Of a DNA stretch of 37,183 nt, positions 1,137 through 27,049 are shown piece after piece (the stretch's first letter is position 1; each line of letters begins with the position of its first letter). The notes below the pieces were generated by a model. That model saw nothing but the letters and a program-made list of their open reading frames with translations. It did no database searches and was not told the DNA's origin. The DNA comes from a virus (Duplodnaviria > Heunggongvirae > Uroviricota > Caudoviricetes). Location of the stretch: IMG/VR virus record IMGVR_UViG_2537562195_000008; one strand, given 5' to 3'. Position numbers and translations under genes: made by a program.

Positions 1137-2813
1137 CTAAGCAACATGCAGTTCATCGTTGGCGGAAGTTGCTGCTTTGCGCTCTTGCTCAATCGCCAGT
1201 GACTCTCTATATTCTTTCGCTTCCGCAAACATTGTCCATTGTGCGTTGATGTTCATATCTTCAATAACAGACTTAATTTCTTTAATATTTACGTTGAAAA
1301 ACTCTTTTCGTGAGTTAATTTTATTGACCTGTTTTTCGTTGAAGACTTTATGCAGATGATTTTCTAATGATGGTGCATCATCACTATAAATCATCGCATG
1401 AACATCGAACGAAAAAGGAACACTAGCATCACCGAGTTCACGAACACGATCAAGTGGTTCAAGGCGGCGTGTCATTCCAATTTTATATACATCTTCGCCA
1501 AATGAGCCAATATTACTAATTATATAAACGTGGCCTGATCTAGTTTGTTGAGCCATAGAAATAGCTCGTTGGTTTTTAGCTTCAGCTTCTTCATATTTTA
1601 ACTGTAGTTCAGCTATTTTTTGCTCTAAAGCTAAGCGTTGTTCTTCATTTGCAAGCATAAGCTCTTTTGTTGCTTTATTTATAGCTTGCTGAATAGCTTT
1701 CTCTTCTTTTTCAGCTTCTTTTATCGCTTTTTCATACTCCCTACGAGCTCTTTCCTCTTCACGAAGTTGTTCTTTAATCCTTCTTTGCTCTTCTTTTTCT
1801 TCGAGCATAATTTCATTAACTGCAACTCCCCATTTTAGCTCGTTGAGTCGAGCTTGAAGATAGATGTCACTTATTTTTGCGGACCTAAAGGCAGAACCAT
1901 TGTAATTTACAAGTTGAAACGCATCTTTTATCTCTTGGGAAAGTTTTCCAAAATTGTTGTGTTTGACTTTTGATAAAATACTGTCAACTCTTCCATTGAA
2001 GGCATCTAAAACAAAGTTGATAGCAGTATTACGCCTGTTTTGTTCAACATAATCACACGAAGCAGCTTTATTAGTTTTTATTAATGATTTTGTTAACTCC
2101 CTGGCTTTTTGTAATTCCTTACCTGCATCTGTAAACTCATAATTTTCTGCCAATTCATCGAGAACGCTACGGTTAGGGATGATCCATTCATCACCATAAC
2201 CTTCAATTTTATTTTTCATTGATTTGGCAACTGCTTCATATTTTTCTGCAAACTCTTTAGCTTCATATGCTGAACCAGCAATCTCTTTTGCTCTTTCTTC
2301 TGCATCGGAAATAATTTTCACTGCATTGTCATTAGCATTTGAGATCAGCTCATTTGCTTTACTATTGGCATTATCAAGACGTTCTTTAGCTTTCAGGCGT
2401 GCATCGCGAGCGTCTTTAGTAATTGCTATAGCTTCGCTATTAGCGTTGCTTATTTTTATCTGAGCTTGATAATTTGCTTCGTTTACTGTCTTAGCAGCCT
2501 TTATTTGGGCTTCTTCTATTTTTTGCCTGGCTATTGAGTCTGCATTTTTTATCTTATTCTCTGCTTCCATCACTGCGCTGTGCAATTCTACGTATTGCCA
2601 TAATGGCGCAGCTCGTCCTTCAAGCTCTGATAGATCTCGTACAGTCTGTGCTAATTCTTCTTGATTTTCTTTCAGTTGGTTGGAAAGGGCTATGTTGTTA
2701 GCTGTCAAGGTATTTATAGCCGCTTTATGTTTTTTGCTTTGCTTAAATAATATTACAGCTAGAATGGGGGCGAGAAATGCTAATAAGAATATAACGATGG
2801 AAAATGAATTCAT
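1137..2813 (-). CDS. Membrane-anchored coiled-coil protein with DUF4041-like region and C-terminal T5orf172/MUG113 (GIY-YIG-like) domain; cargo gene
   Basis: 558 aa; N-terminal hydrophobic helix (IVIFLLAFLAPILAVILF); long E/K/A/Q-rich coiled coil; C-terminus GHVYIISNIGSFGEDVYKIGMTRRLEPLDRVRELGDASVPFSFDVHAMIYSDD...LHKVF matches the T5orf172 signature from memory; AT-rich relative to flanks. Confidence 0.7.
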   Translation of the reverse strand: MNSFSIVIFLLAFLAPILAVILFKQSKKHKAAINTLTANNIALSNQLKENQEELAQTVRDLSELEGRAAPLWQYVELHSAVMEAENKIKNADSIARQKIEEAQIKAAKTVNEANYQAQIKISNANSEAIAITKDARDARLKAKERLDNANSKANELISNANDNAVKIISDAEERAKEIAGSAYEAKEFAEKYEAVAKSMKNKIEGYGDEWIIPNRSVLDELAENYEFTDAGKELQKARELTKSLIKTNKAASCDYVEQNRRNTAINFVLDAFNGRVDSILSKVKHNNFGKLSQEIKDAFQLVNYNGSAFRSAKISDIYLQARLNELKWGVAVNEIMLEEKEEQRRIKEQLREEERARREYEKAIKEAEKEEKAIQQAINKATKELMLANEEQRLALEQKIAELQLKYEEAEAKNQRAISMAQQTRSGHVYIISNIGSFGEDVYKIGMTRRLEPLDRVRELGDASVPFSFDVHAMIYSDDAPSLENHLHKVFNEKQVNKINSRKEFFNVNIKEIKSVIEDMNINAQWTMFAEAKEYRESLAIEQERKAATSANDELHVA

Positions 2814-2833: not shown

Positions 2834-3430
2834 TTAATTTGAAACTATTGTACTTCTTATACAAGCAACTACTTCAATATCAGAAAATGCACATTCAAAG
2901 CTATTCTCTGTACTTGTAATTTTAATCATACCTTTTGGAAGCTTTGTGATTTTTCGAATGGAATAGGTTCCGTCGATGTTGATTAACCAGTGCCCATCAA
3001 GTACTTCAGAAAATTTTTGATCACAAATGTATGTGACGAGCCCATCCTGAATAACAATTGGTGATGAAAGATTTGCAGGAAGAAATGATGAATCGAAGAC
3101 ATATGAACCATCTTCAATCATTTTGCCTGCGGTAAGGCGAAACTTGGCAAGCTCTTCTGTAGCTGCTGTCAGCGAGCTTTGCTTAAGGCCTTGCCCGGTG
3201 GTTAACCATTTCAGTGAGGTTCCTGTTTCAAGAGCACATTGGATTATCCAGTCTGCAGGAAACGTATCCCGCAAATACCTGTTCGCCAGAGTGCTTTTTG
3301 ATACTTCCAAGTGATCAGCTAAAGCCTGTCGTGTCGTAAAGCCATAAGCTTCGACTAATCGCTCAATCGCAGCCTTACCACCTTTATTGGGATTTATTTT
3401 GATCTCATTTGGGTACTTTGATGTTGACAT
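2834..3430 (-). CDS. cI: Immunity repressor CI (186-type: N-terminal HTH, C-terminal oligomerisation domain)
   Basis: 198 aa; resembles 186 CI as recalled (…EAYGF…LA..L.VS.STLANRY…CALETG..L.WL.TG…); divergent from the early lytic operon. Confidence 0.8.
   Translation of the reverse strand: MSTSKYPNEIKINPNKGGKAAIERLVEAYGFTTRQALADHLEVSKSTLANRYLRDTFPADWIIQCALETGTSLKWLTTGQGLKQSSLTAATEELAKFRLTAGKMIEDGSYVFDSSFLPANLSSPIVIQDGLVTYICDQKFSEVLDGHWLINIDGTYSIRKITKLPKGMIKITSTENSFECAFSDIEVVACIRSTIVSN
3406..3418. promoter_or_regulatory. Putative operator repeat copy 1 (CATTTGGGTACTT) in the cI/apl switch region
   Basis: Exact 13-bp direct repeat with 3465..3477, about 59 bp apart, flanking the cI start and the divergent pR region. 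Confidence 0.4.
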
Positions 3431-9577: not shown

Positions 9578-10048
9578 ATGTCTATCGAGGAAAAATTTTT
9601 TAGTGATATCGATTTAAAAGATCCGTTTTTTAACAGCCTAAGAGCTGATTATGAAGGATTTGATGTTTGGTTTCTCTCAAAAGGTAAAAATAAGGCGTTT
9701 GTATCACGTAATGAATTAGGTGAAATCGATGGTTTTCTCTATTTGAAAATAGAAGATGAAGAGTTGAGTGATATGACTCCAACGTTTCCAAAGATGAAGC
9801 GAGTAAAGCTTGGCACATTTAAAATCGATGCTCATGGAACCAAACTTGGAGAGCGTTTTATTAGAATTATGTTTCAATTTGCTATGAGAAACAAACTAAA
9901 AGAAGTATATGTTACTATATTTGATAAGCATTCAGGGTTAATTCGCTTATTAACTAAATATGGTTTTGTTTTAAAGGCGAGGAAAAATCTTTCTACGATT
10001 AATGGGCAAGAAGGTGTATACTTTAAAAACTTGGTATGGAAGGAGTAA
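9578..10048 (+). CDS. Hypothetical protein, possibly GNAT-fold N-acyltransferase-like; island gene 1
   Basis: 156 aa; C-terminal half (…KLGTFKIDAHGTKLGERFIRIMFQFA…EVYVTIFDKHSGLIRLLTKYGFVL) resembles GNAT motifs A/B; AT-rich. Confidence 0.5.
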   Translation: MSIEEKFFSDIDLKDPFFNSLRADYEGFDVWFLSKGKNKAFVSRNELGEIDGFLYLKIEDEELSDMTPTFPKMKRVKLGTFKIDAHGTKLGERFIRIMFQFAMRNKLKEVYVTIFDKHSGLIRLLTKYGFVLKARKNLSTINGQEGVYFKNLVWKE

Positions 10049-10051
10049 AAA

Positions 10052-10633
10052 ATGAGCTATGCTAATTATCCCTTAGTCAAATTGCAGGGGAGAAATTATT
10101 TATTAAGTATTTATCCTGCATGGCATACACGTCTTTTCCCTGAGTCAAAACTCCACAATGAGAGTGCTGGTATCATCGCTGATATATCACATACCAACAG
10201 TATTGAAAAAGTATACTTAACAAAAATGCATGGGGTAGCCAGCCTAAAGCCTGGAGATAATTTGCTTATTTATCGTACTTCAGATGGACAAGGTCCAGCT
10301 CGGTTTAGATCTGTTGCAACTTCAGTGTGTGTGGTTCAGGAAATTAAAGATATTCACGATTTCTTAACTTATGAGGAATTTAAGAATTACTGTGAACCTT
10401 ATAGCGTTTTTGATGAAGATGAGTTACAGCTTCTATATATGAAAAAAAATTATCCGATAATTATACGGTTTACTTATAATTTCCCTTTGGAAAAAAGAGT
10501 TATTCGTGATGAAATCATGAATATTACAGGTTATACCAATAGTGATTATTGGGGTTTTTTACCACTAACTGATTCAGCATTTAAGCAGATTGTCTTACAG
10601 GGAGGTGTTGATGAAAGTTTTATTATCGATTAA
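10052..10633 (+). CDS. Hypothetical protein; island gene 2
   Basis: 193-aa ORF tightly linked (4-nt gap) to the upstream gene; no motif recognised; AT-rich. Confidence 0.55.
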   Translation: MSYANYPLVKLQGRNYLLSIYPAWHTRLFPESKLHNESAGIIADISHTNSIEKVYLTKMHGVASLKPGDNLLIYRTSDGQGPARFRSVATSVCVVQEIKDIHDFLTYEEFKNYCEPYSVFDEDELQLLYMKKNYPIIIRFTYNFPLEKRVIRDEIMNITGYTNSDYWGFLPLTDSAFKQIVLQGGVDESFIID

Positions 10634-10980
10634 GCCAGAGTATGCAGAGAGTATACTTTCTGGTAAAAAAATATGAGTTTCGGAAAAATATTTTTAGAAA
10701 TAAAAATGTTGATACGATAGTTATTTACGCAACGATGCCGGTTGGCAAAGTAATAGGTGAATTTAAAGTAGGAGATATTCTTGCTCTATCCCCTTCAGAA
10801 TTGTGGGATAAAACGAAAGCTCATGCAGGAATTACACATTCTTTTTTTAAAGATTATTTCCACCAAAGAGAAAAGGCTTTTGCTATTTCCATCAAAAGCC
10901 CTAAAAGATATAAATTCCCTGTCGACTTAAATGAGTTGATTCCCGGCGGCGTCGCCCCACAGTCTTATCGTTATTTATAA
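10611..10980 (+). pseudogene. ASCH/PUA-like domain protein interrupted by a frameshift at an A7 tract; island gene 3
   Basis: ATG at 10611 encodes MKVLLSIKPEYAESILSGKK then hits TGA; the listed ORF 10642..10980 continues in another frame with …YEFRKN…IVIYATMPVGKVIGEFKVGDIL…AFAISIKSPKRYKFPVDL…; together they form a typical ASCH domain; the frames meet at poly-A 10665..10671. Confidence 0.5.
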
Positions 10981-11520
10981 TGTTGTCTGGGCATGTTTCT
11001 TAACCATGCCCAGTTTTTCTAGGGCAATAGATAAATCGTTTGTTGTTGGGGATTCTAAGATAATTAATGGTACATTGATTTTATTTGTAACATATTTTGC
11101 GTTTTCTCTTTCAGCTTCCATCAGCTTATTTAAATCATAAGTAATATCACTCCCATCTCGTTTCATTATTCGTTCTCTAATTGTATCGGGAGACTCCTCA
11201 ACTAAAATTACTCCATCTAGCCCCATTTCCTCAAATACTTCTTGCTTGAGAACTTCAATATCTCCATTTTTATTTATTAAGGTAAAATGACCATCCAATA
11301 AAATATTGGATACCTTTGACTTTAATGCATTAAGTGCCGTAAGTAATATTGATTGGTTTTTATCAGGTGTGGCCGTTAACTTACTGTTATCAAATTTAAT
11401 ATTAGAATTATTTTTTATAAGTTCGCTTGCGCTTACATGAGTTACCCCGAAATCATCTTTTGCAAATGAACACAAGTAACCTTTGCCTACACCATGAACA
11501 CCTGCTATGAAAATTAACAT
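10975..11520 (-). CDS. P-loop NTPase, nucleotide/nucleoside kinase-like; island gene 4
   Basis: 181 aa; Walker A GVHGVGKG at the N-terminus, hhhhD Walker B-like ILLDGHF; size and layout like small adenylate/dNMP kinase-like ATPases; RBS GGAGG upstream. Confidence 0.6.
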   Translation of the reverse strand: MLIFIAGVHGVGKGYLCSFAKDDFGVTHVSASELIKNNSNIKFDNSKLTATPDKNQSILLTALNALKSKVSNILLDGHFTLINKNGDIEVLKQEVFEEMGLDGVILVEESPDTIRERIMKRDGSDITYDLNKLMEAERENAKYVTNKINVPLIILESPTTNDLSIALEKLGMVKKHAQTTL

Positions 11521-11585: not shown

Positions 11586-11963
11586 ATGAAGTTTCAAGCT
11601 ATATCGATTTTGACTCCAGCGGTAGAAAATATTATAAATGGTTCTAAATCTATCGAAATACGGTCGTGGTATCCTGAAACGATACCATTAAAAAACGTCA
11701 TTCTTGTTCAGAATGATAAATATCTTAAAAATCAAAGCGATATAGATCATGGGGTGGCTATGGCTATTGTCGATTTTGTTTCAGTTAGAAATTGGTCATA
11801 TGAGGATTACTTAAAACAAAACCAAGAAACAACTCTTAATAAGCCTTGGTCTCCAGGTTATTATGTGTGGGAAATTAAAAATGTTAGAATTTTAAAAAAA
11901 TCTATTCCTTGTGTGGCGAGGAAAGGTATTTATACAATAGATTTAAATATGGATTATATATAA
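11586..11963 (+). CDS. ASCH/PUA-like domain protein; island gene 5
   Basis: 125 aa; …SKSIEIRSW… and C-terminal …YVWEIKNVRILKKSIPCVARKGIYTIDL match the ASCH pattern (Y-x-W-x-L…P…kG.qgi) from memory. Confidence 0.6.
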   Translation: MKFQAISILTPAVENIINGSKSIEIRSWYPETIPLKNVILVQNDKYLKNQSDIDHGVAMAIVDFVSVRNWSYEDYLKQNQETTLNKPWSPGYYVWEIKNVRILKKSIPCVARKGIYTIDLNMDYI

Positions 11964-11974
11964 GGTATTGTGAG

Positions 11975-12766
11975 ATGTGTGGTGCCATTCTTCGAAATAT
12001 TAAGCGTTATGCCATTATTTATTCACTGTTGTTTTTGGCTTTTATTTTAATGCTGATAGTGTTTGTTAGCTATGTTTGTAAATTTGGAATGTATTCATGG
12101 AGTGATTCCGTAGAGAAATGGGGACAGTTTGGCGATTATATTGGTGGTGTACTGAATCCTGCTCTGGCCTTTATCTCTATCATGCTTGTTTGTTTCACAC
12201 TATATTCTACATCTAGGCAGTCATCTATTCAGTCATTCGAGTCTGTGTTATTTGAGTTACTAAGATTTCATAAAGATAACTTATCAGAAATTAAAACAAC
12301 GTATTCAGATGGAAAAGTGTATGTAGGACGGGAGGCTCTTTCATTATACATTACCGAAGTGAAGTTTAACCTACTTAATATTGTGGATGATTCACTTCCT
12401 TTGGATGAAAGGTTAGAGCTTTCAGTTAATATGGTTTATCTGGAAGGTGACAATTTTGCGAATGTGGGACATTATTTCAGGAATATTTACCATATTTTTA
12501 AACATATCAATGACTCTAACTATTTGACTGAGAAAGAAAAAACCAAGTATGCGAAATTAGTTAGAGCACAAATATCTTCTATAGAATCTGGCGCGATGCT
12601 ATTAAATGGTTTTTCATCGGTAGGAAAGCCTGCCAAGAAATTTATTGAAAAATATTCTCTCCTTCAGGGGTTTAGTTTAAGTAAGGAATTCAAGCAGCAA
12701 TTACATGATTTAGGTGCCTTAAAATTATACGATGACGTTGCTTATGAGGATAAAAAAGGGCATTAA
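11975..12766 (+). CDS. Membrane protein with two N-terminal TM helices and a cytoplasmic domain (candidate effector); island gene 6
   Basis: Internal ATG of ORF 11909..12766; hydrophobic helices IIYSLLFLAFILMLIVFVSYV and IGGVLNPALAFISIMLVCFTLY; stop overlaps the convergent portal gene stop. Confidence 0.55.
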   Translation: MCGAILRNIKRYAIIYSLLFLAFILMLIVFVSYVCKFGMYSWSDSVEKWGQFGDYIGGVLNPALAFISIMLVCFTLYSTSRQSSIQSFESVLFELLRFHKDNLSEIKTTYSDGKVYVGREALSLYITEVKFNLLNIVDDSLPLDERLELSVNMVYLEGDNFANVGHYFRNIYHIFKHINDSNYLTEKEKTKYAKLVRAQISSIESGAMLLNGFSSVGKPAKKFIEKYSLLQGFSLSKEFKQQLHDLGALKLYDDVAYEDKKGH

Positions 12767-21284: not shown

Positions 21285-22337
21285 ATGATTAAATTAATGT
21301 CTGAATATAATGATGATTATAAAAAACTAGAAAGATATATTGAAGAGTATATTATAAGGAATAGTCTAGGCACTCAGGTATATAAAGAGGATCAGTTGGC
21401 TCAGTCATTAAATAGTGATGAGGGTTTTTCTTATGTGCGTAATAAAATGGATAATTTACCTTCTGATTGTATTGAAGAGTTATCAAACAATATTCAAGGT
21501 GTAGTTACTCTTCCAACAATCTATGATGATCGTGTGAGTTATAGCATTGCATCTCGCTTGATGAGTAAGGTTGAATTAGTAGCAAAGATATTTCCTTTTG
21601 ATCACCAAAACTATGGTGGGTTTTGTTGTGCTCCAACCGGCAGAGTTAGTGCACTTGCCGCGCCAGTTAAATGCCTAGACGGAAAGTCAAAGGTTTTCAC
21701 AATTTTTGAGTCTGGGATTTTTCAATTTATTCATGGTGTAATTAGTTTGTTTGTTAGCAGTTATCCTAATACTCTTCTGCAAGGTAGTAGTGAAAAAGAG
21801 TGGCGGTCAGAGTGGGAAAAATATTTGAGTAGTGAGCAGAATAGAAGCGCTTTATTACAAAGCAAGATTGACTTAAACGAATGGAGGGATTTTTTTAAGA
21901 ATTACAATGTACGTGGTGAACTTGCTTATACATCGATAATTAACTTCGGTCCTGTAGGGCAAAAGATTATATATAATATGGTCTTTGGCTGTGAGTTATT
22001 CGTAGCCGCTCATGAATATTCTCATGCCATGATGAATCATCAGCAGCCTGATTTAGTTGAATCAGAGGTTGAGAAGGAGGCTGACAAATGGGGGATTAGG
22101 ATTGCGTCCATTATATGTGAAGGTGAAGGTATTCTGATGATTCTTGCGATTGCTGGAATAGCTATATTTTTTTCGGCAATTGAAACGTCTGATCCATCTC
22201 ACTATTTACCAGCAGCTGAACGAATATTGTTCGTGATAAAGTCCTTGGAGATCTCTGATCCTATTAAGGAAAAAACTCTTATTGATATTTCTTGTTTAAT
22301 GCAGGATATATTTTCCGACATTATTAATTTTGAATGA
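21285..22337 (+). CDS. Putative Zn-dependent metallopeptidase (HExxH) with C-terminal hydrophobic helix; cargo gene between S and V
   Basis: 350 aa; motif AAHEYSHAMMNH with downstream acidic residues (EVEKEADKWG); hydrophobic stretch ILMILAIAGIAIFFSAI; strongly AT-rich. Confidence 0.6.
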   Translation: MIKLMSEYNDDYKKLERYIEEYIIRNSLGTQVYKEDQLAQSLNSDEGFSYVRNKMDNLPSDCIEELSNNIQGVVTLPTIYDDRVSYSIASRLMSKVELVAKIFPFDHQNYGGFCCAPTGRVSALAAPVKCLDGKSKVFTIFESGIFQFIHGVISLFVSSYPNTLLQGSSEKEWRSEWEKYLSSEQNRSALLQSKIDLNEWRDFFKNYNVRGELAYTSIINFGPVGQKIIYNMVFGCELFVAAHEYSHAMMNHQQPDLVESEVEKEADKWGIRIASIICEGEGILMILAIAGIAIFFSAIETSDPSHYLPAAERILFVIKSLEISDPIKEKTLIDISCLMQDIFSDIINFE

Positions 22338-24290: not shown

Positions 24291-24888
24291 TCTGCTGCCA
24301 CCAGGTTCAACGCCACTGGAGCGCCGACTGGCGCAGACCTGTAGCGGGATTTCTGATCTGCAGGTGCCGCTGCGTGACTTATGGAATCCGGCAACCTGTC
24401 CGGTCAGTTTCCTGCCTTATCTCGCCTGGGCGTTCTCTGTGGATCGCTGGGACGAGGGCTGGACTGAAAGCGTCAAACGTCAGGTGGTGAAGGATGCTTT
24501 TTATATTCATCAGCATAAAGGAACCACCAGTGCCGTGCGGCGGGTGGTGGAACCGTTCGGATTCCTGATCCGCATTATTGAGTGGTGGCAGACCGGCGAA
24601 ACACCGGGCACGTTTCGCCTGGATATCGGCGTGCAGGACCAGGGTATCACTGAAGATACCTATCTGGAACTTGAGCGGCTGATAAGCGATGCCAAACCAT
24701 GTAGCCGTCACATGATCGGCATGTCCATCAATCTGCAGACCAGCGGTCCGCATTGGGTAGGGGCCGCCAGCTATCTTGGCGAAGAAATCACGATCTATCC
24801 GTATATCAACGAAACAATTATTTCTGGCGGCACCGCGCATGAAGGCGGGGCGGTCCATGTTATTGACACAATGAGAGTGAATCCATGA
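24283..24888 (+). CDS. I: Baseplate/tail protein I (P2 gpI family)
   Basis: 201 aa; overlaps J end; canonical order. Confidence 0.8.
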   Translation: MNSLLPPGSTPLERRLAQTCSGISDLQVPLRDLWNPATCPVSFLPYLAWAFSVDRWDEGWTESVKRQVVKDAFYIHQHKGTTSAVRRVVEPFGFLIRIIEWWQTGETPGTFRLDIGVQDQGITEDTYLELERLISDAKPCSRHMIGMSINLQTSGPHWVGAASYLGEEITIYPYINETIISGGTAHEGGAVHVIDTMRVNP

Positions 24889-26615
24889 GCACAAAATTTT
24901 ATACCCTGCTGACGGATATTGGCGCGGCGAAACTTGCCAGCGCCGCCGCGCTCGGTGTGCCGCTAAAAATTACCCATATGGCGGTCGGCGATGGCGGCGG
25001 AGTATTGCCAACGCCAGACTCAAAGCAGACTGCACTGGTAAATGAGAAACGCCGGGCTGCGCTGAATATGCTCTATATCGACCCGCAGAACAGCAGCCAG
25101 ATTATTGCCGAACAGGTGATCCCTGAAAACGAGGGCGGTTGGTGGATACGTGAAGTGGGCCTGTTTGATGAGTCCGGGGCATTGATTGCCGTGGGCAACT
25201 GCCCGGAAAGCTATAAGCCGCAACTGGCTGAAGGCAGCGGGCGCACCCAGACCGTGCGCATGGTGCTGATTACCAGCAGCACGGACAATATCACCCTGAA
25301 AATCGACCCTGCTGTCGTGCTGGCAACCCGTCATTATGTAGATCAACAAATAGAAATTCATGAGCAATCGCGCCGCCATCCTTCTGCGTCTTTGACAGAA
25401 AAGGGATTTGTACGTCTGTATAGCGGTGTGGAAAGCAATGATGAAACAGTCGCTGCAACGCCAAAAGCAGTGAAAATAGCGATGGATAATGCCAGCGCCA
25501 GACTGGCAAAAGACCGCAATGGTTCTGATATTCCCAATCCGGCACTGTTTGTTCAGAATCTGGGATTGAAAACGACTGTTGATAAAGCTGCATCAGCGAT
25601 TCAGCCAGGAGATTATGGAATTGGCCTGGCTTATCTGAAAACCATGGGAACCAAATCGCAATTTTTTGCTTATGGTACAGCTGTCGGCTATCCAGAAGTG
25701 CCAACACATGGTGCTGGTTTCCAGGCCTGTTACAACGACAATCGACGTGCACAGATTTATGTCGCTAATGATGGCAAGATGTACTGTCGATTCAGCATGT
25801 TATCGAAAATTGCCGATGATGAAACACCGTGGAATCAGGTGTTCACCAGTGCACATTATCCAGAAGCATCAGTGAGTGTTAAAGGAATGGTGCAACTGGG
25901 GAACGATGTAAACAGCGTGTCAGAAAATGTTGCGGCGACATTGAAAGCGGTAAAAATTGCGATGGACAACGCCAGCGCGAGACTGGCAAAGGACCGCAAT
26001 GGTGCTGATATTCCTGACCCGACTTTGTTTATTCAGAATCTGGGACTTAAACCGACGGTTGATAAGGCTGAAAGTGCTCTGCAACAGGGAGCATACGGAA
26101 TCGGTAGCAATAATAACTACGAAATGGGTGAGGTTTCACAGTTTCTTGCATATTCAGGTAATGCAGATGAAGTGCCATCGAATGGTGCAGGTTTTCAGGC
26201 TGCGTATAACAAGAACAGACGCGCGCAGATTTTCATCACCGGAGCAGGGGAAATGTATCACCGTTTCAGCGGCTCTGATACGGTTAAAGACAATACAACA
26301 CTATGGCGTCGGGGTGTTTGTGAAGATGAATTTTCATTTGGCAGCAATTATCACCGAATAACTGGCGGTGTGCTGAAGCAGTTTTTTAACAGTTATTTTT
26401 CCGGGGCAACTGGTGTGGTGAATAAAGAGTATCAGGTGAATTTTCCGACACCATTTGCCCGTCAGTGCTGGTACGTGATCCCCGTTTTCCGTTCGTCACA
26501 CGGTGGGAGTGTTGAGGGTGTCGCCATTACAGCTATTACTGCAACTGGCTTTACTCTGAGCATCACCGGAGATAACGGTGGATGGAATATTGGGTTTATT
26601 GCGGAGGGGGTCTGA
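24885..26615 (+). CDS. H: Tail fiber protein H with internally duplicated distal module
   Basis: 576 aa; conserved P2-H-like N-terminus (MSTKFYTLLTDIGAAKLASAAALGVPLKITHMAVGDGGG); ATGA overlap with I. Confidence 0.85.
   Translation: MSTKFYTLLTDIGAAKLASAAALGVPLKITHMAVGDGGGVLPTPDSKQTALVNEKRRAALNMLYIDPQNSSQIIAEQVIPENEGGWWIREVGLFDESGALIAVGNCPESYKPQLAEGSGRTQTVRMVLITSSTDNITLKIDPAVVLATRHYVDQQIEIHEQSRRHPSASLTEKGFVRLYSGVESNDETVAATPKAVKIAMDNASARLAKDRNGSDIPNPALFVQNLGLKTTVDKAASAIQPGDYGIGLAYLKTMGTKSQFFAYGTAVGYPEVPTHGAGFQACYNDNRRAQIYVANDGKMYCRFSMLSKIADDETPWNQVFTSAHYPEASVSVKGMVQLGNDVNSVSENVAATLKAVKIAMDNASARLAKDRNGADIPDPTLFIQNLGLKPTVDKAESALQQGAYGIGSNNNYEMGEVSQFLAYSGNADEVPSNGAGFQAAYNKNRRAQIFITGAGEMYHRFSGSDTVKDNTTLWRRGVCEDEFSFGSNYHRITGGVLKQFFNSYFSGATGVVNKEYQVNFPTPFARQCWYVIPVFRSSHGGSVEGVAITAITATGFTLSITGDNGGWNIGFIAEGV
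25401..25800 (+). repeat. Tail-fiber internal tandem repeat, copy 1
   Basis: aa about 173-304 (KGFVRLYSGVESNDETVAATPKAVKIAMDNASARLAKDRNGSDIP…GAGFQACYNDNRRAQIYVANDGKMYCRF) are repeated with divergence at aa about 333-463. Confidence 0.7.
25881..26275 (+). repeat. Tail-fiber internal tandem repeat, copy 2
   Basis: KGMVQLGNDVNSVSENVAATLKAVKIAMDNASARLAKDRNGADIP…GAGFQAAYNKNRRAQIFITGAGEMYHRF; the core is also recognisably similar at DNA level (GCGATGGA(T/C)AA(T/C)GCCAGCGC…GACCGCAATGG). Confidence 0.7.
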
Positions 26616-27049
26616 TGAGTTATTTTTACAGTCCATCAAGAAATGCATTTTATAACAGTGAACTGAAATCTGATTATTACGATGCTCTCGATGCGTGGCC
26701 GGATGACTGTATTGAGGTGAGTGATGCAGTCTATCAGGAGTTTTATCTTGGTTATCGGGAAGGGTACAAAATGGTTGCAGGCACTGATAACCAGCCATCA
26801 TGGGAAGAACGTCCACCATTGACCCATGAGGAACAGGTGGAACAGGCAGAAATGATGAAACAGATGCGCATTAATGAGGCTAACAACCTGATTAATGAAA
26901 AACAATGGCCATCAAAATTACAGCTTGGCAGGCTGAACGAAATGGAGACAACCAGATTTAATGCGATGCTGGATTATCTTGAGTTACTTGAAAATATTAA
27001 TGTAAGTGATGCCCCGGATATAGTCTGGCCTTTATCACCAGAAGTCTGA
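26615..27049 (+). CDS. G: Tail fiber assembly chaperone (P2 gpG-like)
   Basis: Internal ATG sharing one base with the H stop (TGATG); follows the fiber gene. Confidence 0.7.
   Translation: MSYFYSPSRNAFYNSELKSDYYDALDAWPDDCIEVSDAVYQEFYLGYREGYKMVAGTDNQPSWEERPPLTHEEQVEQAEMMKQMRINEANNLINEKQWPSKLQLGRLNEMETTRFNAMLDYLELLENINVSDAPDIVWPLSPEV

Follow-up and report, generated by a model that had tools for sequence, protein, structure and literature searches.

Two homologous 160-residue modules in tandem in the tail-fibre gene of a P2/186-like prophage

The tail-fibre gene H of a P2/186-like prophage encodes two stretches that resemble each other, which raises the question of what the repeated unit is, how the pair arose and what it might do for the fibre. 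The gene lies in a stretch of 37,183 nucleotides from a virus of the class Caudoviricetes (IMG/VR record IMGVR_UViG_2537562195_000008; hereafter, the window), and the features discussed below are collected in Table 1. Self-BLASTP of H returned the identity match only, and comparison of the split sequence by BLASTP and Smith-Waterman alignment with shuffles was therefore used. Between the halves, 94 of 153 residues (61%) were identical (E = 6e-62), and the Smith-Waterman score of 432 has to be compared with 30.4 ± 4.8 in 300 shuffles (z = 84). The alignment pairs aa 166-318 (window positions 25380-25838) with aa 326-476 (25860-26312); the modules start exactly 480 nt, or 160 aa, apart, and of the 160-aa unit ∼152 residues are alignable. 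Chance or compositional similarity is refuted by this E value, by the distance from the shuffled sequences and by the exact 480-nt register. The claim of two tandem homologous segments in the tail-fibre gene, made in a preliminary description from the bare sequence, is thereby confirmed: a self-alignment devoid of significant similarity would have spoken against it, and the similarity is overwhelming. The consensus quoted there (AAT.KAVKIAMDNASARLAKDRNG.DIP.P.LF.QNLGLK.TVDKA ... GAGFQA.YN.NRRAQI) is correct, and so is the location, while the limits given (25401-26275; aa 173-304 and 333-463; a module of ∼130 aa) are slightly short at both ends.

At the level of DNA, the similarity that had been claimed is real but uneven. 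Self-blastn aligned gene nt 580-706 with nt 1060-1186 (84% over 127 nt) and returned a second stretch of 64 nt at 75%; the copies are also 71% identical over 239 nt, and 61% identical when their entire length is compared in a codon alignment. The longest exact match between them is 14 nt. Similarity is concentrated in the 127-nt core. Tandem Repeats Finder, for which the copies are too diverged, reported nothing on the repeat.

The H product is 100% identical to the “phage tail protein” WP_000104811.1 of Escherichia coli strains A12 and NCTC9113, in which the prophage with the identical gene is P2/186-like and adjoins ybjL. Residues 1-149 of H cover the Pfam family PF12571 (phage tail-collar fibre, N-terminal) in full (E 1.9e-64). 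The ORFs located 5′ of H match Baseplate_J and Tail_P2_I (gpI-like), the one located 3′ matches Caudo_TAP, and the gene order, as given by Pfam and by RefSeq for the identical locus, is baseplate J, I, H, tail-fibre assembly gene, sheath, tube. By its PF12571 N terminus and this gene order, H belongs to the P2/186-type tail fibres (gpH/K). The early region of the window, which encodes an integrase, CI, CII (CP76), a Dam methylase and gpA, is 186-like. Collinearity of the window with strain A12 is absent upstream of the late genes.

Each module consists of a head of ∼75 aa followed by a knob of ∼85 aa. The heads account for the two stretches of H that match PF03406 (Phage_fiber_2; 101.6 bits vs a cut-off of 22; E 1.7e-29); they carry the Phage_fiber_2 motif AATxKAVK together with the Mu-Sc-type sequence IAMDNASARLAKDRNGxDIPxPxLFxQNLGLK, and head 1 matches residues 111-191 of Mu gpS (E 7e-24). 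The same segment occurs in 186 K, in P2-type H, in SfMu and in lambdoid side tail fibres. Judged by sequence, most of the striking similarity between the copies is this pan-phage Phage_fiber_2/Mu-Sc head motif. The junction between head and knob, TVDKAxSAxQxGxYGIG, is common to both units in exact 160-aa register. In a full-length AlphaFold model of H, the heads are predicted as short strands followed by helices (pLDDT 70-88), the helices of head 1 comprising residues 193-208, 219-225 and 229-236. Papers on P2 pseudotyping, on the in situ structure of Mu and on an E. coli collagen-like protein contained no structure of a Phage_fiber_2 segment.

The knobs follow the pattern YGIG...SQF.AY...EVP.NGAGFQA.Y...RRAQI....G.MY.RFS......TPW, for which Pfam has no family, returning chance-level matches only (DUF859, E 0.059); a profile of eight knob sequences found none of the PDB chains at E ≤ 10. 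Outside of H, head-less knobs are present in other fibre proteins (P0264, P0344, P0345, P0378/9), and P0329 carries a tandem pair of them. In the full-length model, the knobs were poorly predicted (pLDDT <50). A monomer AlphaFold model based on the eight-sequence alignment yielded a five-stranded β domain (mean pLDDT 79, pTM 0.70), and the best three Foldseek matches of this model were R1 and R2 pyocin fibres. As modeled, the knob fits the structural Knob class, that is, an antiparallel five- to six-stranded β fold of ∼80-85 aa.

The tip of the fibre is a domain of its own. Residues 508-570 match PF21882 (Gp53-like_C) with 23.2 bits, under the cut-off of 24.9 (E 9.9e-5), and the tip region of the full model has a pLDDT of 62-89. 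Foldseek aligned the full model with the R1 pyocin fibre (6cl5), with the pyocin foot domain (6cxb, E 5.9e-4), with AP22 gp53 (4mtm, 8.4e-3) and with the H-type lectins 3wmp (3e-3) and 2ccv (1e-2), and the predicted tip accordingly has a fold similar to AP22 gp53, the pyocin foot and H-type lectins. The two modules had been placed in the distal fibre; this needs to be qualified, since they lie in mid-shaft and the distal end (aa ∼486-576) is formed by the separate, lectin-like tip.

Table 1. Features of the tail-fibre gene H and its surroundings (positions refer to the window).
Feature	Position	Strand	Remarks
Tail-fibre gene H, 576 aa, P2/186-like prophage	24885..26615	+	ORF; Pfam PF12571 and PF03406 (×2)
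N-terminal baseplate-attachment domain, aa 1-160	24885..25364	+	PF12571; pLDDT >90; moves as a block
Head 1, aa 166-240 (strand, Phage_fiber_2 motif, helices)	25380..25604	+	PF03406 stretch 169-209; Mu gpS match
Conserved DNA core, copy 1	25464..25590	+	84% identical to copy-2 core (self-blastn)
CTGATATTCC, copy 1, left side of the 480-nt deletion joint	25525..25534	+	L146 corresponds to copy 1 up to here
Degenerate homologue of Mu gix/186 crossover site, copy 1 (encodes FVQNLGLKT)	25549..25574	+	Homologous codons
Knob 1 (domain X1), aa 241-325	25605..25859	+	
Head 2, aa 326-400	25860..26084	+	Second PF03406 stretch; aligns with head 1
Conserved DNA core, copy 2	25944..26070	+	Self-blastn partner of copy-1 core
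CTGATATTCC, copy 2, right side of the 480-nt deletion joint	26005..26014	+	L146 corresponds to copy 2 hereafter
Degenerate gix-like putative relic, copy 2 (encodes FIQNLGLKP)	26029..26054	+	14/26 bases match Mu gix (hand count)
Knob 2 (domain X2), aa 401-485	26085..26339	+	Aligns with knob 1
C-terminal lectin-like tip domain (predicted), aa 486-576	26340..26612	+	Gp53-like_C sub-threshold; Foldseek
Tail-fibre assembly (chaperone) gene, downstream of H	26615..27049	+	Caudo_TAP E 6.5e-26; RefSeq start is the base after the H stop overlap

The reading we favour, at a probability of roughly three in four, is that the trimeric P2/186-type tail fibre encoded by H has, one after the other in its shaft, two homologous 160-residue modules of rod and knob. 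In each of them, a rod-like head of ∼75 aa (a short strand, AATxKAVK and helices) would be followed by a five-stranded β knob of ∼85 aa. The knobs would trimerise around the fibre axis and thereby set the length and stiffness of the fibre; knob 2 may, in addition, supply a second, weak saccharide contact, as has been proposed for Knob2 of pyocins, while primary receptor specificity would reside in the tip domain served by the chaperone.

How mobile the parts of the gene are can be read from its natural alleles, in which three joints were mapped: at the end of the N-terminal domain, at AATLKAVK and at CTGATATTCC. The common second allele (P0233-type, also 576 aa) differs from H in aa 1-160 only, hence the distal cassette has been transferred as a whole from one N-terminal lineage to another. 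Another allele, L066 (631 aa; the same type is present in E. coli as P0242/P0423), shares with H gene nt ∼450 to ∼1075, that is, head 1, knob 1 and the first half of head 2, and continues after AATLKAVK with an unrelated Gly-rich distal part; the shared block is ∼98% identical in DNA and therefore recent. A third natural allele, L146 (encoding P0243), comprises 416 aa (576 − 160) and is without exactly 480 nt. Its nt 1-570 are ∼99% identical to L147 (P0418), a diverged two-module gene from a metagenome, the modules of which have ∼73-78% nucleotide identity to those of H. Thereafter follow ∼60-75 nt identical to the copy-1 core of the window, and from TGACCCGACTTTG on L146 is ∼100% identical to copy 2 and the tip of the window, in the +480 register. 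The switch from copy 1 to copy 2 falls within the 10 nt of in-register identity that CTGATATTCC represents.

That the 416-aa allele arose by assembly collapse was considered and rejected, given the longest exact match of 14 nt between the copies and the fact that the P2-like tail operon in which L146 lies is intact and includes a chaperone of its own. A match of 14 nt is shorter than typical assembler k-mers. Efficient recombination by RecA usually needs ∼25 bp; exact identity below about this length agrees with how rarely the deletion is seen, P0243 being a singleton (a single sample, and a cluster with one member in the representative library). One-module genes were found neither in GTDB species genomes nor in the IMG/VR scans nor in 5426 complete E. 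coli genomes. The complete H gene was present in 47 of the latter, and both modules were kept in every one of them (the matches spanning 1731 nt, in two pieces), as they were in 151 protein clusters of 576 aa. In homologue searches, the full 576-aa query recovered 120 near-identical 576-aa clusters, the 160-aa module only short fragments of ≤280 aa, and P0243 the 576-aa family, P0243 itself being absent. The two-module form is, thus, the stable and prevalent state. The proposal that the modules are a substrate for recombination gained support, as L146 is without exactly one 480-nt unit and L066 is joined at AATLKAVK. At the level of the sequences compared, the joints demonstrate that the conserved head is a site of fibre-gene recombination, both in register (exchange of N-terminal and distal blocks) and out of register.

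The pair itself is old. Compared with each other, the copies have a dS of ≥1.8, with saturation in the knob, a dN of 0.38 and a dN/dS of 0.21, and in the core a dS of ∼1.0 and a dN/dS of 0.11; between orthologues (H vs L147) dN/dS is 0.05-0.09. Both copies are under purifying selection. Orthologous copies of H and L147 differ by a dN of 0.09 and 0.16, paralogous copies by 0.35-0.38; thus, the pair predates the split between H and this ∼20% diverged lineage. The cores gave no signal of concerted evolution or of gene conversion, because core identities within a gene (0.79 and 0.83) are not above the paralogous ones between lineages (0.74 and 0.82).

Homology and tandem order of the “diverged duplication” named in the preliminary description stand, but an event within the gene followed by divergence may not hold, considering that synonymous sites are saturated and that the knobs have only 45% identity. 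It is possible, at somewhat less than an even chance, that two fibre genes with one head and one knob each were joined by staggered homologous recombination at the head motif. The 45% identity of knob 1 and knob 2 does not exceed the 43-45% that each shares with knobs from unrelated fibres, head 1 is about equally close to the 186 K core and to head 2 (hand count), the block of head 1, knob 1 and half of head 2 has moved alone at ∼98% nucleotide identity (L066), as have knob 2 and the tip (L146), and every joint falls in the head motif. Against such a fusion stand the Mu-type head and the junction TVDKAxSAxQxGxYGIG that both units share in a 160-aa register, for which a single in-place duplication is the simplest account. 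Moreover, one-knob alleles appear to be derived from the two-module gene rather than ancestral to it, L146 having ∼60 nt of window-type copy-1 core immediately before its copy-2 sequence and the block in L066 being recent, and neither the GTDB genomes nor IMG/VR nor the E. coli genomes yielded an ancestral gene of the type head-knob 2-tip. In sum, the same long head with the head-knob junction in exact register favours in-place duplication, the equal distance to outside knobs and the independently mobile blocks favour staggered recombination, and the odds of the two are roughly equal.

The two modules in series, whatever their origin, had also been taken as a route to altered or dual receptor specificity. 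That the duplicate diverged under positive selection towards a second or altered specificity is improbable. It is true that between H and L147 knob 2 has diverged most (71% identity, where knob 1 has 81% and the tip 89%) and that it has the most recurrent polymorphisms in the family (11% of sites), and for pyocins Knob2 and the C-terminal domain have been proposed as two binding sites (PMC6116203). However, dN/dS is 0.21 between copies and 0.05-0.09 between orthologues, both copies have been retained and conserved across the ∼20% diverged lineage, and a separate lectin-like tip with a cognate chaperone is the usual determinant of specificity. By analogy to pyocin fibres, LPS may be contacted by the tip and possibly by knob 2; with dN/dS well below 1 despite the divergence of knob 2, dual specificity remains an analogy. 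It is likewise doubtful that the knob is an unclassified saccharide-binding domain, so that knob 2 and the lectin-like tip would make two spatially separate receptor contacts. Were this true, out-of-register recombination between heads, as in the 416-aa allele, would naturally alter fibre length and valency and, with them, the host range.

The heads also contain what looks like the remains of an invertible-fibre joint. The annotated boundary of the Mu G segment reads ...TTATCCAAAACC|TCGGTTTACAGGAA, the codons being LFIQN|LGLQET, and at homologous codons 186 K has a misc_recomb feature, TTGTCCAGAATATCGGTTTAAAACCC, annotated as “Mu-like inversion crossover site.” An invertible segment of the Gin/Cin/Pin type has inverted functional crossover sites and an adjacent invertase gene; in H, the two gix-like sequences are in direct order, and neither the window ORFs scanned, which were those of ≥150 aa, nor the identical late region as annotated in RefSeq contained a serine recombinase. 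A programmed switch, in which an invertase of the Din family supplied in trans deletes and restores a module at the direct gix-like repeats, would be in accord with the codons that each head shares with the Mu G-segment boundary and the 186 K crossover site, but is highly improbable: next to the lack of a recombinase in those ORFs and that annotation, the sites are degenerate (copy 2 matches Mu gix at 14 of 26 bases, with the central TCGG changed to TGGG; hand count), the natural deletion joint CTGATATTCC lies 15-25 nt upstream of the gix-like site, and all 47 E. coli genomes have the two-module form. The gix-like sequences are read as probable signs of shared ancestry of the fibre joint and not as a working switch.

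Tandem modules are an old and ordinary route to building phage fibres, and the general understanding of these fibres is unchanged by H. Modestly new are a knob family that has no Pfam model, the 160-aa unit of head and knob, and a base-pair-level record of in-register and out-of-register recombination at a conserved head, which makes H a worked example of the Phage_fiber_2/Mu-Sc motif as a joint in fibre-gene mosaicism. L146 demonstrates that clean loss of one module occurs in nature, and the mapped joints are rational fusion points for engineering fibres of the P2 or pyocin type.

Among known systems, Mu gpS (Sc) is related to H through PF03406, each H head being ∼67% identical to gpS residues 111-191. 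The Mu segment extends as far as the G-segment boundary, the natural joint between constant and variable parts; Mu, however, has one long segment with an invertible variable part and Gin, whereas H has two segments with direct, degenerate sites and no invertase among the ORFs scanned or in the annotated late region. 186 K and P2 gpH share with H the position of the gene, the N-terminal domain and the head family. Head 1 and the core of 186 K have ∼84% identity (hand count), and tblastn matches cover 84-94% of the H module at 37-49% identity, but 186 K and the P2-type H examined have other distal domains; a 919-aa H of a P2 variant had no match to the knob profile and contains three tandem repeats of a different domain of ∼85 aa. 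The tandem knob “tower” of the Staphylococcus phage phi11 receptor-binding protein (5EFV), phage K gp144 (5M9F) and the repeated domains of T4 gp34 (5NXH) are of unrelated sequence and belong to another virion context and to other hosts.

Closest in architecture are the fibres of the R-type pyocins of P. aeruginosa (PDB 6CL5/6CL6), which belong to a contractile tail related to that of P2 (Buth et al, 2018; PMC6116203). They consist of a rod of helix plus turn, two tandem Knobs of ∼83 aa that are held to be a gene duplication, and a lectin-like C-terminal domain, which together with Knob2 has been proposed to provide two separate binding sites (PMC6116203). The relatives of the pyocin Knob named there largely equal the Foldseek matches of the predicted H knob (PMC6116203). 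H has no detectable sequence similarity to pyocin fibres; its knobs are parted by a 75-aa Phage_fiber_2/Mu-Sc head, those of the pyocins by one helix-turn; its copies are 45% (knob) and 61% (overall) identical within a 160-aa unit of head and knob, compared with 20% for the pyocin knobs; and between its knob 2 and tip there is no long shaft containing iron. The predicted knob and the full model match pyocin structures best, and the order of rod, knob, rod, knob and lectin-like tip is the same. With its N-terminal domain, repeated rod and knob, putative lectin-like tip and chaperone, H therefore follows the plan of the R-pyocin fibre.

The distal part of the tail-fibre gene of L146, a prophage whose natural H allele (protein P0243) carries only one module, is ~100% identical to that of the window, whereas the product of the chaperone (tail-fibre assembly) gene located directly 3′ of it (L146 7251-7682) shares only ~60% identity with its counterpart in the window, as estimated by eye. 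The right-hand recombination joint is accordingly located within the last ~20 nt of H, and the tip of L146 is left with a non-cognate chaperone. In the window, the mechanical ORF of the chaperone gene and its RefSeq annotation differ in their start (see the table below).

P0241 (491 aa) corresponds to a frameshifted H allele, which past the start of knob 2 enters the +1 ORF overlapping H. Most likely, therefore, P0241 reflects a pseudogene of another strain or an error in the sequence of that strain.

Features addressed in this section, with their coordinates
Feature	Location	Strand or frame	Remark
ORF overlapping H	window 25957-26361	+1 frame	ORF call, inside H
Tail-fibre assembly gene, mechanical ORF	window 26582-27049	+	start 33 nt inside H
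Tail-fibre assembly gene, RefSeq start	window 26615-27049	+	MSYFYSPS..., overlaps H stop codon
350-aa ORF	window 21285-22337	+	between gpS-like and gpV-like genes
558-aa gene	window 1137-2813	-	PADLOC and Pfam matches
Two adjacent ORFs	window 9578-10048 and 10052-10633	+	PADLOC match
AAA_17/adenylate-kinase-like protein	window 10975-11520	-	gpA-portal cargo hotspot
putAbiC (abortive infection) protein	window 11909-12766	+	gpA-portal cargo hotspot
H of L150 (OU784746.1)	L150 1303-4062		919 aa

Outside the fibre region, the 558-aa gene has the integrase gene (1-1053, -) on one side and the gene for the CI repressor (2834-3430, -) on the other. Its best-scoring defence match, in PADLOC, was PD-Lambda-1 (E 4.7e-120); in Pfam, it matched DUF4041 and T5orf172/MUG113. 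PDC-M11A, a candidate defence protein in PADLOC, was matched in its N-terminal half by the first of the two adjacent ORFs (E 1e-58) and in its C-terminal half by the second (E 6e-69); the pair looks like a single gene interrupted by a stop or a frameshift. E. coli strain A12 has the identical fibre gene, but at the position of the gpA-portal cargo a KAP NTPase is encoded together with an AAA ATPase instead. The 350-aa ORF, labeled hypothetical in RefSeq, matched no Pfam family; its sole, and weak, match was PADLOC peptidase_U41 (E 2.7e-8).

H of the "Peduovirus P2" variant L150 contains three tandem repeats of ~85 aa (LNT.G....G.W...NYPE...G.LEV...G..QR.TTR.GN.Y.R...W..W), a domain unlike that of H in the window. 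L150 H is one more P2-type fibre in which knob-like repeats follow one another in series.
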